A stretch of 49,858 nt of DNA from a virus: UHGV virus genome UHGV-0134932. One strand, written 5' to 3'. Position numbers and translations under genes: made by a program. Position 1 is the stretch's first letter. Each line of letters opens with the position of its first letter. This document shows, piece by piece, positions 12,325-22,203 of this stretch. The notes under the pieces were generated by a model, which had not been told where the DNA came from, did no database searches, and saw only the letters and a program-made list of their open reading frames with translations.

Positions 12325-13883
12325 ATGAAAATGACAAGTATTCAACAACGTGCAGAGCTTCATCGTCAAATCTGGCAAATTGCTAACGATGTCAGGGGTT
12401 CGGTCGATGGATGGGATTTTAAGCAATACGTTCTGGGCGCACTTTTCTACCGTTTTATCAGCGAAAATTTTTCCAGCTATATTGAAGCCGGTGATGACAG
12501 TATCTGTTATGCGAAACTGGATGACAGCGTAATTACTGATGACATTAAAGACGATGCCATCAAAACCAAAGGTTACTTCATCTACCCCAGTCAGCTTTTC
12601 TGCAACGTAGCGGCGAAAGCAAATACCAATGACAGACTGAATGCAGATTTAAACAGCATCTTCGTTGCTATCGAAAGTTCTGCTTACGGCTACCCTTCAG
12701 AAGCAGACATCAAAGGTTTGTTTGCTGATTTCGATACCACCAGTAACCGCCTGGGTAACACCGTTAAGGATAAAAATGCCCGTCTGGCTGCGGTTCTGAA
12801 AGGGGTTGAAGGGTTAAAACTTGGTGACTTCAACGAACATCAGATTGACCTGTTCGGTGATGCCTATGAGTTCCTGATTTCTAACTATGCGGCAAATGCC
12901 GGTAAGTCAGGCGGTGAGTTCTTTACACCGCAGCACGTCTCCAGGCTGATTGCACAACTGGCTATGCACGGGCAGACCAGCGTTAACAAAATCTACGACC
13001 CGGCAGCGGGTTCCGGCTCACTGTTGTTGCAGGCGAAAAAACAGTTTGATAACCATATCATCGAAGAAGGCTTTTTCGGTCAGGAAATCAACCATACGAC
13101 CTATAACCTGGCGCGTATGAACATGTTTTTGCACAATATCAACTACGACAAGTTTGATATCAAGCTGGGTAATACACTGACTGAGCCGCACTTCAGAGAT
13201 GAAAAACCGTTTGACGCCATCGTATCTAACCCACCGTATTCGGTGAAATGGATTGGCAGCGATGACCCGACGCTGATTAACGATGAGCGTTTTGCCCCGG
13301 CTGGCGTTCTGGCCCCCAAATCCAAAGCTGACTTTGCGTTTGTACTACATGCGCTGAACTATCTTTCGGCCAAAGGTCGTGCTGCGATTGTCTGCTTCCC
13401 GGGTATTTTTTACCGTGGCGGCGCAGAGCAGAAAATCCGTCAGTATCTGGTCGATAATAACTATGTCGAAACCGTAATTTCACTGGCACCGAACCTGTTC
13501 TTTGGCACCACCATTGCTGTAAACATTCTGGTGCTGTCTAAACATAAAACGGATACCAAAGTTCAGTTTATTGACGCCAGCGAACTGTTCAAAAAAGAGA
13601 CTAATAACAACATCCTGACCGATGCTCATATCGAACAGATTATGCAGGTATTTGCCGGCAAGGAAGATGTTGCTCATCTGGCGAAATCTGTCACGTTTGA
13701 GACTGTTGTCGCGAATGACTATAACCTGTCGGTGAGCAGCTATGTGGAAGCGAAAGATAACCGCGAAATAATCAATATTGCTGAGTTGAATGCAGAGCTG
13801 AAAACCACGGTCAGCAAAATCGACCAGTTGCGCAAAGATATTGATGCGATTGTGGCAGAAATCGAAGGCAGTGAGGCTCAGGA

Positions 13884-13887
<4 letters not shown>
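12325..13887 (+). CDS. hsdM: Type I restriction-modification methyltransferase subunit HsdM (type IC-like)
   Basis: 520-aa protein with N6-adenine MTase motifs ([14 protein letters not shown]); overlaps hsdS start. Confidence 0.95.
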
Positions 13888-15167
<1,280 letters not shown>

Positions 15168-15288
15168 TTGACCATTGCTACCGACCGGGCCACCTTAACA
15201 TCCGGTCAGTATATAGACTATTTTTTACACGCCGGAAGTCACTCTTAACTCCCTTCCGGCCCTTGCCAGACGGCACAAAGGATGCGCT

Positions 15289-18200
15289 ATGACTCATCAG
15301 ACACACACCATTGCTGAATCCAATAACTTTATCGTTCTTGATAAGTACATCAAAGCTGAGCAAACAGGCGACAGCTATCAGAGCGAATCGGACCTGGAAC
15401 GTGAACTGATTCAGGACCTACAAAATCAGGGCTATGAATTTATAGCCGTAAAATCTCAGTCAGCGATGCTGGCCAATGCTCGGGAACAGCTTCAGAGCCT
15501 CAATGGTGTGGTGTTTAATGACAGCGAGTGGCGGCGTTTCACGGAGCAGTATCTGGACAACCCGAGCGATGGCATTCTGGATAAGACCCGTAAAATCCAT
15601 ATCGACTATATCTGCGACTTTATTTTTGACGACGGGCGTCTTGAGAACATCTATCTGATCGATAAAAAGAATCTCATGCGCAACAAAGTGCAGATTATCC
15701 AGCAGTTTGAACAGGCAGGTTCTCACGCTAACCGTTATGACGTAACTATCCTGGTTAATGGCTTACCACTGGTACAAATCGAACTGAAAAAGCGCGGCGT
15801 GGCGATTCGTGAGGCTTTCAACCAGATACATCGTTACAGTAAAGAGAGTTTTAACAGCGAAAATTCTCTGTTTAAGTATCTGCAACTGTTTGTCATTTCC
15901 AACGGTACCGATACCCGTTATTTTGCCAACACAACAAAGCGCGATAAAAACAGTTTTGACTTCACCATGAACTGGGCGAAATCAGACAACACGCTGATTA
16001 AAGACCTCAAAGATTTTACCGCTACCTTTTTCCAGAAACATACTCTGCTGAATGTTCTGGTGAACTACAGCGTGTTTGACAGTAGTCAGACGCTACTGGT
16101 GATGCGACCGTACCAGATTGCAGCTACCGAACGAATTTTATGGAAAATCAACAGCTCCTATAAAGCGAAAAACTGGTCTAACCCCGAAAGCGGTGGCTTT
16201 ATCTGGCACACCACTGGTTCCGGTAAAACACTGACCAGCTTTAAAGCCGCGCGTCTGGCAACAGAACTGGACTTTATTGATAAAGTCTTCTTCGTGGTCG
16301 ACAGGAAAGACCTCGATTACCAGACCATGAAGGAATATCAGCGTTTTTCGCCAGATAGTGTTAACGGCTCGGAAAATACAGCAGGTCTTAAACGAAATCT
16401 GGATAAGGACGATAACAAAATTATCGTCACCACTATTCAGAAACTTAATAACCTGATGAAAGCAGAAAGCGACCTGCCTGTATACAATCAGCAAGTGGTG
16501 TTTATATTTGATGAATGTCACCGCAGCCAGTTTGGAGAAGCACAGAAAAACCTGAAGAAGAAATTCAAACGCTATTATCAGTTTGGTTTTACCGGCACAC
16601 CTATTTTCCCGGAAAACGCCTTAGGCTCAGAAACGACCGCCAGCGTATTTGGCCGTGAATTGCATTCATATGTTATTACCGATGCGATTCGTGATGAAAA
16701 AGTGCTTAAATTCAAGGTGGACTACAACGATGTGCGGCCACAGTTTAAGTCTTTAGAGACAGAAACTGACGAGAAAAAACTGAGTGCGGCTGAAAATCAG
16801 CAGGCGTTCCTTCATCCCATGCGTATTCAGGAAATTACGCAATATATCCTGAATAACTTCCGCCAGAAAACCCACCGTACTTTCCCTGGCTCCAAAGGTT
16901 TTAATGCCATGCTGGCAGTGAGCAGCGTGGATGCCGCGAAAGCCTATTACGCGACGTTTAAACGGTTACAAGAGGAAGCCGCTTATAAATCTGCTACCTA
17001 TAAACCACTACGTGTTGCGACAATCTTCTCCTTTGCCGCTAATGAAGAACAAAATGCCATTGGTGAAATTTCCGATGAAACTTTTGATACCAGCGCAATG
17101 GACAGCAGTGCTAAAGAGTTTCTCGACGCTGCAATTCGTGAATATAACAGCTATTTTAAAACTAACTTCAGTACCGACAGTAACGGTTTTCAGAACTACT
17201 ATCGTGATTTAGCCCAGCGGGTTAAAAATCAGGATATCGATCTGTTAATTGTCGTGGGGATGTTTTTAACTGGCTTCGATGCTCCAACATTGAACACGCT
17301 ATTCGTCGATAAAAACCTGCGTTTTCACGGCTTGATGCAGGCATTTTCCCGCACCAACCGTATTTATGATGCAACTAAAACCTTCGGTAATATCGTCACT
17401 TTCCGGGATCTGGAACGCTCAACTATTGATGCCATAACGCTGTTTGGTGACAAAAACACCAAAAATGTGGTTTTAGAAAAGAGTTATGCAGAGTATATGG
17501 AAGGCTTTACTGATGCTGCCACTGGTGAAGCTAAGCGCGGCTTTATGGCAGTAGTTTCAGAACTGGAACAACGGTTCCCTGACCCTACCAGTATTGAAAG
17601 TGAAAAAGAGAAGAAAGACTTCGTTAAACTGTTTGGTGAATACCTGCGTGCCGAGAACATCCTGCAAAACTATGATGAATTTGCCACGCTGAAAGCCCTG
17701 CAACAAATCGATCTTAGCGATCCTGTTGCGGTAGAAAAATTCAAAGAAGAACATTATGTGGATGATGAAAAGTTCGCTGAATTGCAAACGATTCGTCTCC
17801 CTGCTGAACGCAAGATTCAGGATTATCGTTCTGCCTATAACGATATTCGTGACTGGCAGCGCCGCGAGAAAGAAGCTGATAAAAAAGAAAAATCAACCAC
17901 TGACTGGGATGACGTGGTTTTTGAGGTCGATTTGCTGAAGTCTCAGGAAATAAACCTGGATTATATCCTTGGACTGATTTTCGAACACAACAGACAAAAT
18001 AAAGGCAAGGGCGAAATGATCGAAGAGGTCAAACGCTTAATTCGTTCAAGCCTGGGGAACCGGGCGAAAGAGGGCCTGGTGGTCGATTTTATTCAGCAAA
18101 CGAACCTGGATGATTTACCAGACAAAGCCAGTATCATTGAGGCATTCTTTACGTTTGCTCAACGCGAACAGCAACGTGAAGCAGAAGCATTGATAAAAGA

Positions 18201-18405
18201 AGAAAATCTCAATGAAGATGCAGCAAAACGCTATATTCGCACGTCTTTAAAACGCGAATACGCCACCGAAAATGGCACAGAATTAAACGAAACATTACCA
18301 AAACTTAGTCCGTTGAATCCGCAATATAAAACGAAAAAACAGGCAGTTTTCCAGAAAATCGTCTCGTTTATTGAGAAGTTTAAAGGCGTAGGCGGAAAAA
18401 TATAG
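15289..18405 (+). CDS. hsdR: Type I restriction endonuclease/translocase subunit HsdR
   Basis: 1038-aa protein with PD-(D/E)xK-like N-terminal region, SF2 helicase motifs (TGSGKT, DECH) and C-terminal helical domain. Confidence 0.95.
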
Positions 18406-18484
18406 CCCAATTCGTGTTTTTCTTGCGGGTTCTTAATTAAACCCGCAAGAGCTCGTGGGGTTCCAAATGGCTAATATACTCCCC

Positions 18485-18571
18485 TTACCCATGCGCGACG
18501 ATGCCGCCAAAAGTGATAGAGAACAGCCAGAAATAGATCGCGGCCATAATGATTTTGAATGCCGTGTTCAT
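18485..18571 (-). CDS. Candidate 28-aa hydrophobic peptide (MNTAFKIIMAAIYFWLFSITFGGIVAHG)
   Basis: Short ORF with GGAG RBS, 5' hairpin (18601-18620) and a C1 operator about 90 bp upstream; below the ORF-track length cutoff. Confidence 0.3.
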   Translation of the reverse strand: MNTAFKIIMAAIYFWLFSITFGGIVAHG

Positions 18572-18653
18572 ATTTTCAGCTCCTGTGATTGACTGGATAC
18601 ATGCCGCGCCTTGCGGCATGTTTTTATTTTCACTTTCTCTGTTTTAAAAATCA

Positions 18654-18670
18654 ATATTTATTAGAGCAAT
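18654..18670. promoter_or_regulatory. C1 operator
   Basis: atatttattagagcaat, 16/17 match. Confidence 0.75.
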
Positions 18671-19176
18671 TATTGTTGATGGAGAAGCGCGTTTTCATAC
18701 TCCCTGACCATTAACGTAAGTACGCCGTGCCTCCTGAAAACACGCGCCACTTCAATCTTATCTTCCAGCGCGAACGCGATTTTACTTAGACCAATTTTCT
18801 TAAGGAGATCAATCTTTGCTGGGCCGTCATTTCTGTCATCGGTGGCAGGACGCATAGATAGCAAAGGCTCAGCCCCGTTTGTTACGTACTTCCGCAGCCA
18901 GGCTCGTGTTTTATCCCTTGCGATCTCACAGCGCCCGGTTACAAACCAGACCGTGTAAACGTTAAATAACTGGCGCACAATATCAATAACTGGAGTTATG
19001 GGAGTATCAGTGTCACAGGCGAGATTAAACTCGTTCCAGTCCTTTGTTAATGCACCTTTACCTGGTGGCGGAAGCAAATGCAGTCTGTCTTCAGTTGCCT
19101 CTGATATTGTTCCATCAATATCGACTATGACGATATACGGACGTTCCTGGTGTGCGTGTTTATTGAAAATACTCAA
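18670..19176 (-). CDS. HAD-superfamily phosphatase-like protein
   Basis: N-terminal DxDGT motif (IVIVDIDGTIS) characteristic of HAD phosphatases; 168 aa. Confidence 0.6.
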   Translation of the reverse strand: MSIFNKHAHQERPYIVIVDIDGTISEATEDRLHLLPPPGKGALTKDWNEFNLACDTDTPITPVIDIVRQLFNVYTVWFVTGRCEIARDKTRAWLRKYVTNGAEPLLSMRPATDDRNDGPAKIDLLKKIGLSKIAFALEDKIEVARVFRRHGVLTLMVREYENALLHQQ

Positions 19177-19248
19177 ATGCCCTCCTCATTGGACGAAAAA
19201 AATGCTGGTGGGCGCACTCCACCAGCATTAAAAGTGACACTGTAACTA

Positions 19249-20511
19249 TCAGCGGACGTAAATAGTGCCGCCGTTCTCTTTTTCCCATGCATCGCTACGT
19301 GCATAGCAAACATCGAGAAGTCTTCTTGCCGCTGTTTCCTCTAAACCCAATTCGACCACCAACTGCTCATGACGGCGGGTAACCACATCAAACAGGGTAT
19401 GCAACCCTTTAGTTGCCAGTTCATCAATGAATTCCGGTTCGAACGGTAGCTCTGCATCTGCCAACATAACCTCTTGCGCCCACTCGACACGGCGGACCAG
19501 TTCCGGGCGGCGGCTTTCCATCTCTTTACAGATCAATTCATGGAAGAACTCTACCCAACCTTCCGGCTGGAACTCGCGGAAAATGGCCAACGGCTGGAAG
19601 TTTGGCATCAACCATTCGTTGATCCGGATATCAATGGCATAGCCCATGTCGCAGCAGAACTGATAAGCAAAGTCCAGCTTAGAAACGATATAAGGACGCT
19701 CATTATTGAACTCTTTAGGCGATGAGATCCCATAAGCCAGGAGACGCGGGAAGAAGGAGATTTGCCCTAACGTCGGATGAAGTTTGCTTGCAGGGAAACG
19801 GCGCTCAGTAATGCCATACATTTCCTTCTTGAGCGTCGCAAATTTGGCATTCTCATTAACCAGCGCGGTAACCTCTGCTTTTTTATTAGCAAATGCCACG
19901 CGCGCTTCGCTTGCATCTTTAATAGTTTTTTTGAGCTGTTGGTTAAGGTCGGCAACCTGCTTACGCAGTTCCTGTCGCTCGCTTTTAGCTTTGTTATAGC
20001 GTTTCTCAAGGTTAAAAGGATCAAGTTTCATGATCTCTTTATATTGAGATTTTAGCGTTGAAATCTGTGAGTTCCGCAGTTCAACCATCGCGGTCATTTC
20101 ATTGAGTTTTGTTTCCAGCTCAATGCTTATACGTTCGGCATTATCAGCACGCTGGTTGGAGTCATGCGTCGCATCGTCGATCGCGTCCTGTTGCTGGCGT
20201 TTCAAATGTTCAATTTGCAGCTGAAGCTCTTCAATTTCTTTACCCTTCAGACCGAGATCCAACTGCATATTTTCAGCTGCATCTACCAGGGAGTTATGGC
20301 TATCAGCTTCTGCGTTATAAACATCAATAAGCTGTGCGTGAAGCATCTCCGCTGACTGAACCGCATTATCAAAAAAACGTGCTGTGAGGTCATCACAACT
20401 AACGCGGCGTTGCGCGGCCCGGATGTTCTGGATAATGGCCGGGATACCGGCATTCAGGACATCAGGGATAGATACATTTTCGATTGATTGCTTTTGTGCT
20501 GAAGTGCTCAT
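19249..20511 (-). CDS. 420-aa protein with long N-terminal coiled-coil and Cys/Trp-rich C-terminal globular region; function unknown
   Basis: Heptad-rich Q/E/K/L segment over roughly residues 60-230; no recognisable catalytic motif. Confidence 0.55.
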   Translation of the reverse strand: MSTSAQKQSIENVSIPDVLNAGIPAIIQNIRAAQRRVSCDDLTARFFDNAVQSAEMLHAQLIDVYNAEADSHNSLVDAAENMQLDLGLKGKEIEELQLQIEHLKRQQQDAIDDATHDSNQRADNAERISIELETKLNEMTAMVELRNSQISTLKSQYKEIMKLDPFNLEKRYNKAKSERQELRKQVADLNQQLKKTIKDASEARVAFANKKAEVTALVNENAKFATLKKEMYGITERRFPASKLHPTLGQISFFPRLLAYGISSPKEFNNERPYIVSKLDFAYQFCCDMGYAIDIRINEWLMPNFQPLAIFREFQPEGWVEFFHELICKEMESRRPELVRRVEWAQEVMLADAELPFEPEFIDELATKGLHTLFDVVTRRHEQLVVELGLEETAARRLLDVCYARSDAWEKENGGTIYVR

Positions 20512-20512
20512 T

Positions 20513-20731
20513 TCAAAGTTCCGTATTAGCTTGTGCTTCGGTCATTTTTCCTAAGTATGAAGGAGGAAGGACTACGCAATTTGTATCCAGTCCCTCACCT
20601 ATGGCAGCCTGTAAAATTCTGGCTAAGGTGAGTCTCTTGTTGCGATACCTGGTGATGACATGCCTGATACCGCCGGTCGGCGTAACAAAGGCGATCAGCC
20701 AGTAGTGATATTTCCGTCGGAATGGCCACAT
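20513..20731 (-). CDS. 72-aa basic protein, first gene of a C1-controlled operon
   Basis: ORF directly downstream of two C1 operators; 1-nt gap to the next gene. Confidence 0.4.
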   Translation of the reverse strand: MWPFRRKYHYWLIAFVTPTGGIRHVITRYRNKRLTLARILQAAIGEGLDTNCVVLPPSYLGKMTEAQANTEL

Positions 20732-20745
20732 AGTGCACCTTGTAA

Positions 20746-20762
20746 ATTGCTCTAATAAAAAA
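20746..20762. promoter_or_regulatory. C1 operator
   Basis: attgctctaataaaaaa, 15/17 match. Confidence 0.7.
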
Positions 20763-20794
20763 CGTGATGAGTGTACATCACGTTTTAAAAATAT

Positions 20795-20811
20795 GGAATT
20801 ATTAGAGCAAT
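20795..20811. promoter_or_regulatory. C1 operator-like site
   Basis: ggaattattagagcaat, 14/17 match. Confidence 0.5.
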
Positions 20812-20812
20812 A

Positions 20813-21514
20813 TTATTCTGAAACTTGCTCAAAAAACGAGCTGGTAAGGGGAATCCAATCCTCTGACACTTCGCGAGGTCGCGGTTTGCCGTGGAAAAAG
20901 ATTATTCGGCAGTCTTTTGGTAATGCCCCATTCCCCCTGGAGTAACGCGCGCTCGCATATTTCGAACCAGGTTCCACAACATCGGCCTTGTAACTTACAA
21001 ACCATCCCGGATACAGATCCTGAAATGCTGGTGTATCATCACCCATAACCTTCCGCAAAAACCCCTGATCACCCCAGCATTCAGTAGTAACACAACGAGC
21101 AATCCAACCTTCCGGATCTTGCCAGAATGCACTCCAGATATGCGCTTTTACACTATTTGGTATCCACAGGGCACCGCTGCCACGATATTGTGGATGGTAA
21201 AAATCCCTAAGCATGGTGAAGTTGGTTGGTGGATTCTCTAGGATTGGGCGTATATCACCGGCAATAACCGTGTCCAAATCCAGATAGAACAGATCATCGG
21301 TTATATCCGGTCGGAACAACTCGATTTTCGCCCACCAGCCACGGCACTTTTGCCACTGGTTGATCAATGGGATAACTTTGACGCCAGGTACATGTAAACG
21401 CTTCAGGTCTGTCAGGCAAATAATTTCATAGTCTTTTGGCAGTTGATTAACCAGCCACTGCACATCGGAAGCGTTATAGTCACCACCAGAGCGAAGAACT
21501 AAAGCAATCTTCAT
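20813..21514 (-). CDS. Putative GT-A-type glycosyltransferase-like protein (DxD-like YLDLDT motif)
   Basis: 233 aa; N-terminal beta-alpha-beta-like start [13 protein letters not shown] and DLD motif; 4-bp overlap with the upstream phosphatase gene. Confidence 0.45.
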
Positions 21515-22203
21515 GCTGCACCATCACCTTTCACTTTCTTCAATGTCAGGTTTCCGCAAAATACGGCACCTGTGTCGATATAATGCTGATTCCAGAATGT
21601 CTTCGGGCTTTTCACCGGAGTGTGACCAAAGATAAAACGATCTGCGCCCGAAATTTCGCCACCAATATCATCCATCGAATCACTGATACGCTCGCGCGCC
21701 CAGACAACGTTGAAAAGCGGCACCTCCTTACCGAATTGATATTCATTATCCGGATAGTCGGCATGGGCTATAACGATAGTTTCTTGCCCGGTGTTCAACT
21801 CAATGATATAGGGCAGTCGTCTTACCAACTCCACCAGCGCCCTGGCTAATATTTCCTGATCAGCGTCCAGCATGAAGAACCATTGACCGCCATTCATTAG
21901 CCAGTTATTCACGTTGCCATCAGGACTTAACGCATCGAGCATCAACAGCTCATGGTTCCCCACTACTGCCCTGAACCAGGGCATCTGCAATAGTTCCAGA
22001 GATTCGACATTTTCAGTACCGCGATCGATAAGGTCGCCGACCGATATCAGTAAATCCTGCGCCGGGTCAAAATCCACACGATGGAGTTCGGACATCAGTC
22101 TGGTGTAGCAACCATGCAGATCACCAACAACCCAGACATTCCTGTATTTGGTACCGTCGATACGGTGATAAATTGTGGGTGCCATCATGTATTCTTCAGC
22201 CAT
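21511..22203 (-). CDS. ppp: Ser/Thr protein phosphatase of the lambda-PPase/calcineurin-like metallophosphoesterase family
   Basis: GDLHGC, GDLIDRG and GNHE metallophosphatase signature motifs. Confidence 0.85.

Follow-up and report, generated by a model that had tools for sequence, protein, structure and literature searches.

The pmgR-pmgS-pap cluster of bacteriophage P1 in a P1-like phage-plasmid: a repressor-controlled gene pair and an adjoining phosphatase gene

Introduction

In bacteriophage P1, the pmgR and pmgS genes are annotated as being under the control of the immunity repressor C1. The P1 GenBank record shows two operators, OpmgRa and OpmgRb (formerly Op86a and Op86b), overlapping a predicted sigma-70 promoter, PpmgR (AF234172). 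Op86a is stated to control "expression of pmgR and pmgS," pap not being mentioned, and the product of pap is described merely as a "putative acid phosphatase" (AF234172). Here we describe the same cluster, pmgR-pmgS-pap, in the virus genome UHGV-0134932, a stretch of 49,858 nucleotides (nt) referred to below as the window, in which the cluster and its operators occupy positions 18654 to 20811 of the minus strand.

Genetic analysis of the P1 genes has been published. Gonzales et al. (2022) deleted pmgR, pmgS, pap, and 26 further P1 genes in frame (PMC9024508). The pmgR deletion gave <10^2 plaque-forming units (PFU)/ml and produced no infectious virions, only unjoined tails and incomplete heads, and pmgR supplied in trans restored plaque formation (PMC9024508). 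The pmgR gene is thus essential, being required for the formation of complete virions. Its product went undetected in the virion proteome, and HHpred returned no match for it (PMC9024508). Deletions of pmgS and of pap were viable (PMC9024508), and both genes were nonessential in a genome-wide CRISPR interference (CRISPRi) screen (PMC10695390). In a survey of 54 P1-like phage-plasmids, pmgR and pmgS were among 21 "extremely conserved" genes (PMC9603915).

Results

The window carries the P1 cluster

Among phage records searched by megablast, 19 P1-family genomes (P1, P7, SJ46, and RCS47 included) matched positions 18400 to 21000 at 97 to 99% identity with 97 to 100% query coverage. Nucleotide identity was 97.9% to P1 and 98.7% to P7, and the same open reading frames (ORFs) and operators lie at exactly corresponding positions in the P1 (AF234172) and P7 (AF503408) records. 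PmgR was identical to the P1 protein (72/72 residues), and PmgS (416/420) and Pap (164/168) were nearly so. On the basis of this near-identity and the shared ORFs and operators, the source of the window is a P1-like phage-plasmid, and the locus is the repressor-controlled pmgR-pmgS-pap cluster of P1, which had been annotated and knocked out previously. Gene order, gene lengths, operator positions, and the two hairpins described below are the same in P1 and in P7, where the genes are named shtA-shtB-pap. The sole difference from P1 is the segment beyond Op88, which holds pmgT-pmgV, upfM-upfO, hot, and lxr in P1 and type IC hsdMSR in the window.

An earlier sequence-only reading of the window had placed the middle protein in "no recognisable family." That was wrong: the protein is PmgS, a full-length match to phrog_1660 (E = 2e-194). 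Comparison with the P1 upf and pmg genes, which the same reading had proposed, gave near-identity to the named genes pmgR, pmgS, and pap; clear homology to P1 morphogenetic proteins of known role, which it had set against its own proposal, was largely found, and fully so for pmgR. GenBank and the literature already cover the locus, with its operators and knockout phenotypes, so this is not a new system. New here are the apparent conservation of the gene pair, its fast evolution, the predicted (HhH)2 (tandem helix-hairpin-helix) end of PmgS, the retention of inverted operators, and the placement of Pap as a nonconstant phosphatase of the PNKP type. Identity, operator positions, hairpins, domain content, and pair conservation were established in the present analysis. 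Knockout phenotypes are taken from the cited papers, the promoter is the depositor's prediction, C1 binding follows the P1 annotation, and terminator activity is predicted. Window coordinates equal those of locus L001 plus 14480.

Inverted C1 operators and a hairpin precede pmgR

With the operator consensus ATTGCTCTAATAAATTT, 13 sites were found in the window at three or fewer mismatches, compared with 0.23 expected. Op86a, Op86b, and Op88 (3, 3, and 1 mismatches, respectively) are of the asymmetric 17-bp operator type and are placed over or beside a promoter. Op86a and Op86b are exact over their first 13 nt, ATTGCTCTAATAA, and form a perfect 13-nt inverted pair, with Op86a covering the predicted -35 hexamer of PpmgR (Table 1). 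Both sites had been picked out in the sequence-only reading, and they coincide with the annotated P1 operators; its description of the operon as C1 repressed agrees with the P1 annotation of OpmgRa and OpmgRb over PpmgR. Op88, a third operator, was absent from that reading. In P1, Op88 controls the next operon, pmgT (AF234172), which is missing from the window, the hsd cassette standing in its place. No P1 late-promoter -22 box was found upstream of or near pmgR, which agrees with the P1 annotation.

What had been taken for a "perfect 24-bp palindrome" between the two operators is instead a pair of 11-bp arms (20759 to 20769 and 20776 to 20786) around a 6-nt spacer without self-complementarity. 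The hairpin shares 4 nt with Op86b and also overlaps the -10 hexamer. Its folding energy of -13.4 kcal/mol and the U-run that follows make it terminator-like, and it is likely the intrinsic terminator of the upstream pmgN-pmgQ operon.

Only 1 nt separates the stop codon of pmgR from the start codon of pmgS, and the two genes are therefore predicted to be translationally coupled. The gap between pmgS and pap is 72 nt and contains a second terminator-like hairpin, and pap has its own Shine-Dalgarno sequence, GAGGAGGG, ahead of its TTG start. Thus, the proposal of a tightly coupled three-gene operon was only two-thirds right, holding for pmgR and pmgS and failing for pap.

TABLE 1 Features of the pmgR-pmgS-pap region in order of window position
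Feature	Position	Strand	Basis and remarks
hsdM/hsdS/hsdR cassette, complete	12325-18405	+	EcoR124 type (type IC); convergent with pap
C1 operator Op88 (OpmgT), ATTGCTCTAATAAATAT	18654-18670	-	1 mismatch; corresponds to P1 Op88; overlaps pap stop codon
pap, 168 amino acids (aa), TTG start	18670-19176	-	ORF; 164/168 identical to P1 Pap; PF25109, phrog_415, Pnkp1 (4xrp)
Predicted intrinsic terminator between pmgS and pap	19201-19229	-	11-bp stem, 7-nt loop, U7 tail; -18.1 kcal/mol
pmgS, 420 aa	19249-20511	-	ORF; 416/420 identical to P1 PmgS; phrog_1660
pmgR, 72 aa	20513-20731	-	ORF; 100% identical to P1 PmgR; phrog_3177
C1 operator Op86b (OpmgRb), ATTGCTCTAATAAAAAA	20746-20762	+	Pattern match and P1 annotation; inverted relative to Op86a, downstream of promoter
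Hairpin, 11-bp stem and 6-nt loop, then UUUUUUAUU	20759-20786	-	Inverted repeat and RNA folding; -13.4 kcal/mol, z = -5.1
Predicted sigma-70 promoter PpmgR	20782-20810	-	-35 TTGCTC at 20805-20810, -10 TAAAAC at 20782-20787; mapped from P1 annotation (depositor's prediction)
C1 operator Op86a (OpmgRa), ATTGCTCTAATAATTCC	20795-20811	-	Pattern match; corresponds to P1 protein_bind 82152-82168

PmgR and PmgS form a fast-evolving pair in divergent relatives

Ten divergent loci with a PmgS homologue (21 to 52% identity to the window PmgS), on phage-sized contigs of 25 to 99 kb, were compared. A PmgR-like ORF of 68 to 77 aa lies directly upstream of the PmgS homologue in nine of the ten; in one of these nine (L008), the two are overlapping or fused. 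To judge from this gene order, which has not been described before, PmgR and PmgS constitute a conserved gene pair. A pmgM-pmgO-pmgP-pmgQ block like that of the window precedes the pair in five loci, with PmgP and PmgQ 53 to 70% identical to the window proteins. In the four loci L003, L010, L011, and L013, PmgS is 25 to 27% identical to its window counterpart, versus 53 to 65% for PmgP and PmgQ; PmgR is 30 to 36% identical in three of the four most divergent loci, those in which it was detected by tblastn. The difference from the neighboring genes indicates that the PmgR-PmgS pair evolves much faster than they do, again a new observation. Such fast divergence is unusual where one gene of a pair is essential. 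The pap gene was present in only one divergent locus (L004), as was ppp, and Pap is therefore not a fixed part of the module.

In four loci, two operator-like sites in inverted orientation lie ahead of the pmgR-like gene. Those of L004, ATTACTCTAATAA and GTTGCTCTAATCA, are of the P1 type, and pap in that locus is immediately followed by an exact operator. In L003 and L010, AAGATACTAA(T/A)TT occurs twice, inverted, and L011 has ACCATACTAATT twice, inverted, with similar sites elsewhere in the locus. These pairs of AAGATACTAATTT or ACCATACTAATT sites (L003, 7701 to 7753; L010, 5697 to 5752; L011, 5696 to 5759) stand in place of the P1 C1 operator. This suggests that C1-like repressors of differing specificity control the same operon in relatives, and repressor control of pmgR-pmgS seems to have been kept even where operator specificity changed.

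PmgR and a possible role at the neck

PmgR is a basic protein (isoelectric point [pI], 10.1; 10 Lys/Arg versus 4 Asp/Glu), as the sequence-only reading had it. It matched phrog_3177 over its full length (residues 1 to 72; E = 4e-47), and its predicted fold is beta-beta-alpha-beta-alpha (model predicted local distance difference test [pLDDT] score, 88). PmgR and PmgS queried singly against Protein Data Bank sequences returned nothing significant, and against Pfam and NCBIfam, they returned only coiled-coil noise (TPR and SMC). In a BFVD search, matches were limited to uncharacterized Pseudomonas phage proteins.

The deletion phenotype could be explained if PmgR were a low-copy P1 neck piece, i.e., a head-completion or adaptor protein that joins head and tail, with PmgS as an assembly chaperone or scaffold for that step. 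The pmgR deletion does resemble the deletion of pmgC, whose product is like the T7 gp11 adaptor (PMC9024508). Neither PmgR nor PmgS is among the listed virion proteins, and "pmgS" is absent from the main text of that study, although its authors note that a low-copy protein of 8.3 kDa could escape liquid chromatography-tandem mass spectrometry (PMC9024508). The PHROG label of the PmgS family, "head and packaging," is in line with a role at the neck, but a C1-repressed predicted sigma-70 promoter with no late promoter would be unusual for a P1 structural gene, and PmgS and PmgR (25 to 36% identity) evolve far faster than their neighbors (53 to 65%). We consider a neck role possible, though not probable.

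Some PmgR relatives from Citrobacter and metagenomes (P0183, P0184, and P0186) carry an extra C-terminal hydrophobic tail of ∼25 aa that resembles a membrane anchor. The predicted tail of these homologues is hard to reconcile with a purely virion-internal role.

The PmgS family is predicted to end in an (HhH)2 domain

From its N to its C terminus, PmgS comprises a conserved motif, a long coiled coil, a middle domain rich in beta structure, and a predicted (HhH)2 domain. In the AlphaFold model (mean pLDDT, 73.7; C-terminal domain, 85 to 90), helices spanning residues 41 to 160 and 167 to 231 are followed by a beta-rich middle (∼235 to 305) and a helical C-terminal domain. The two helices confirm the long coiled coil that had been noticed in the sequence; the accompanying description of a Cys/Trp-rich C-terminal region was overstated, there being 4 Cys and 4 Trp per 180 residues. 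No match to the middle domain was recognized when it was searched within the whole protein rather than on its own.

A word-indexed protein search with PmgS retrieved only P1-like relatives (29 clusters). A profile search of 1.84 billion cluster representatives found 119 representatives, 86 of them at an E value of 1e-10 or better and most full length (360 to 470 aa); the wider family is visible only by such an exhaustive search. A search for related loci with an alignment of one subgroup returned no viral locus. In a 35-member alignment, the C terminus has the helix-hairpin-helix consensus L..KGIG..tA..I...C...V..W, with W409 invariant. The Pfam family RNA_pol_A_CTD (PF03118) was matched by 12 of the 35 members (best E value, 5e-7), and HHH_5 was matched by 11. 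Against structures, positions 338 to 395 of the family profile matched 1doq (the RNA polymerase alpha C-terminal domain; 1e-7), 1b22 (the RAD51 N-terminal domain; 2e-7), and the NusA acidic repeats (4e-4). At the family level, PmgS is thus predicted to end in an (HhH)2 domain like that of the RNA polymerase alpha C-terminal domain, a type defined by a five-helix bundle of ∼60 aa with two helix-hairpin-helix motifs. Unlike these likenesses, the PmgS domain is attached to a coiled coil of ∼200 residues and a middle domain, and its hairpin is degenerate in P1.

The long coiled coil of PmgS carries at its end a predicted fold typical of nonspecific DNA binding, which raises the question of whether the target of PmgR and PmgS is phage DNA rather than the particle. 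They might serve concatemer processing, condensation, or packaging-motor hand-over; heads left unfilled could then not join tails. The tails and incomplete heads of the pmgR deletion resemble the proheads and tails of the packaging-defective pacA control (PMC9024508), and the high pI of PmgR and the predicted early, C1-controlled rather than late expression would fit. Yet PmgS is dispensable, (HhH)2 domains of the alpha C-terminal or NusA acidic-repeat type also mediate protein-protein contacts, and in P1 the HhH motif of PmgS is degenerate; DNA binding by PmgR or PmgS is hypothetical. A direct action on phage DNA is, in our judgment, somewhat doubtful.

Pap resembles the phosphatase domain of PNKP enzymes

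Pap scored 46.3 bits (6e-12) against PF25109 (HAD_PNKP), above the curated cutoff of 27.6, and its nucleophile motif reads D19-I-D21-G-T23, so that the HAD phosphatase with DxDGT of the sequence-only reading is well founded. It also matched PHROG "polynucleotide kinase" families, in their phosphatase part only, and aligned to the phosphatase domain of Pnkp1 (4xrp residues 207 to 302). Other Protein Data Bank matches, to designed TIM barrels, were rejected as spurious, leaving Pnkp1. Pap shares with T4 Pnkp and bacterial Pnkp1 the DxDGT motif, the (S/T)GR motif, and the acidic motif IV. It differs from T4 Pnkp in that it corresponds to the phosphatase domain alone: no P-loop 5'-kinase domain was found in its 168 residues, for which Pfam and PHROG matches cover the phosphatase part only. 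Pap is accordingly classed, by its predicted domain content, as a stand-alone PNKP-type HAD phosphatase. No RNA ligase partner for Pap turned up in the searches made here.

An accessory function linked to the R-M cargo is unlikely

The complete hsd cassette, a type I restriction-modification (R-M) system, ends 265 nt from pap, and the sequence-only reading was correct that the cluster abuts R-M cargo. It had further suggested that the cluster could have a lysogeny-repressed accessory role in anti-defence, host takeover, or exclusion. We weighed this idea, with a link to the R-M cargo, for the cluster and in particular for pmgS and pap. The repressor control in this proposal stands. Anti-defence does not stand for pmgR, which is essential for virions, and is without support for the other two genes. 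Phages lacking pmgS or pap showed "normal restriction" on EcoA, EcoB, and EcoK hosts (PMC9024508, Table S3), which rules out a role of either gene in anti-restriction against type I systems. Among PADLOC defence models, only a weak coiled-coil match of PmgS to LmuB (E = 1e-4) was found, and none for PmgR or Pap.

The dispensability of pmgS and pap for lytic growth is what an accessory function would predict, and the fast evolution of PmgS and a domain like that of RNA polymerase alpha, which could mimic a host protein, would be compatible with it. The phosphatase family of Pap includes T4 Pnkp, an RNA-repair enzyme that counters anticodon nucleases associated with type I R-M loci; Pap, however, has no kinase domain, and no RNA ligase was met in our searches. 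The region beside pap is a known variable cargo site, but the cluster is near-identical whatever the adjacent cargo (pmgT in P1, other genes in P7, hsd in the window). With pmgR essential for morphogenesis, restriction of the pmgS and pap deletions normal, and PADLOC returning coiled-coil noise, we regard the accessory explanation as very unlikely for the cluster as proposed. A conditional accessory role of pmgS and pap is possible.

The cassette lies between humD/doc and pap, where it replaces lxr-hot-upfMNO-pmgVUT of P1, and it reads toward pap; phage vB_EcoM-673R5 has the same layout and orientation. The pmgT-humD region beside pap is highly variable in the 54 P1-like phage-plasmids (PMC9603915), and the P1 record notes P1-like sequence on the flanks of the EcoDXXI and R124 hsd loci (AF234172). 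A functional link between the cluster and the hsd cassette was considered and rejected: since the cluster is unchanged in P1 and P7, which have other genes at this site, its proximity to the R-M cargo is incidental.

Other features of the neighborhood

Immediately downstream of Op88 and the predicted PpmgT promoters is a 28-aa hydrophobic ORF (MNTAFKIIMAAIYFWLFSITFGGIVAHG; 18485 to 18571, minus strand) that has a good Shine-Dalgarno sequence. The ORF is in a P1-homologous segment and is without P1 annotation. An SJ46 feature under the match is labeled "membrane protein"; its overlap with the 28-aa ORF is unconfirmed. In the window, the predicted C1-controlled PpmgT promoter is directed into the 3' end of hsdR, antisense to that gene. 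Just after hsdR, a hairpin at 18599 to 18621 (plus strand; -17.9 kcal/mol) followed by a T-run is likely the hsdR terminator. On the minus strand, this hairpin has no U tail and so would not be expected to stop PpmgT transcripts.

Upstream of the cluster, several "putative morphogenetic" genes of the group pmgQ, ppp, pmgP, and pmgO (20813 to 23371, minus strand) resemble enzyme genes. PmgQ has a match in a PHROG "glycosyltransferase" family, PmgP has weak matches to MptE-like and sialyltransferase-like ones, and Ppp is a lambda-type Ser/Thr phosphatase. All were dispensable in published knockouts. Given these enzyme-like matches and the dispensability, the "pmg" label is probably misleading for these genes. 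In two divergent loci (L003, 1 to 3040; L004, 1 to 887), a gene for a DarB-like giant methyltransferase-helicase (∼2,260 aa) lies a few kilobases upstream of the pmgM-pmgS block, a placement that differs from the P1 gene order.

Discussion

The locus is very probably explained as a pmgR-pmgS(-pap) transcription unit of the P1 type that works as follows. In the lysogen, C1 bound to the two inverted monovalent operators would keep the unit off (binding is annotated in P1), with Op86a over the -35 hexamer of PpmgR and Op86b just downstream of the start site, both together repressing. Once C1 is inactivated on induction, host RNA polymerase would transcribe pmgR-pmgS early from PpmgR, with no Lpa-type late promoter involved. 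The hairpin between the operators would stop transcription coming from pmgN-pmgQ, leaving pmgR and pmgS dependent on their own repressible promoter, and the translation of PmgR and PmgS would be coupled. The small and basic PmgR, of alpha/beta fold, would then enable a late step of head maturation (head completion, DNA filling, or head-tail joining); it is assigned to this stage because its deletion accumulates only tails and incomplete heads. PmgS would be a dispensable partner, its joint target with PmgR being either DNA or another protein. Pap, behind a predicted terminator and dispensable in the laboratory, would be a 3'-phosphatase-type HAD enzyme loosely attached to the module.

Several observations weigh against this explanation. 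CRISPRi knockdown did not score pmgR as essential, a result that the authors call a false negative (PMC10695390). In the P7 record, these genes are called shtA and shtB ("sheath structure or assembly" and "sheath contraction"), which conflicts with the deletion phenotypes. PpmgR, a depositor's prediction only, was not picked up by a simple consensus promoter scan. The window PmgS alone falls below the Pfam threshold for HhH and its hairpin is degenerate in P1 (ELGLEETAARRLL); on these grounds, DNA binding by P1 PmgS may have been lost. Finally, the phenotype-free pmgS deletion implies that PmgR works without PmgS in laboratory conditions, which weakens the idea of an obligate pair.

The pmgR gene is among the few essential P1 genes without an assigned biochemical function. 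Its essentiality, its place in a fast-evolving pair with a coiled-coil protein that is predicted to end in an (HhH)2 domain, and the retained repressor control narrow the experiments needed for assigning one. A speculative and rather unlikely reading is that PmgR-PmgS is a fast-evolving, immunity-repressed early module outside the virion. In such a module, the (HhH)2 domain of PmgS, similar to that of RNA polymerase alpha and borne by the long coiled coil, would contact DNA or else a transcription or replication factor of the host, with PmgR as the essential effector. If this were true, head filling in P1 would depend on a DNA- or host-directed step rather than on a neck protein, and one of the last essential P1 genes lacking a function would have been given one.

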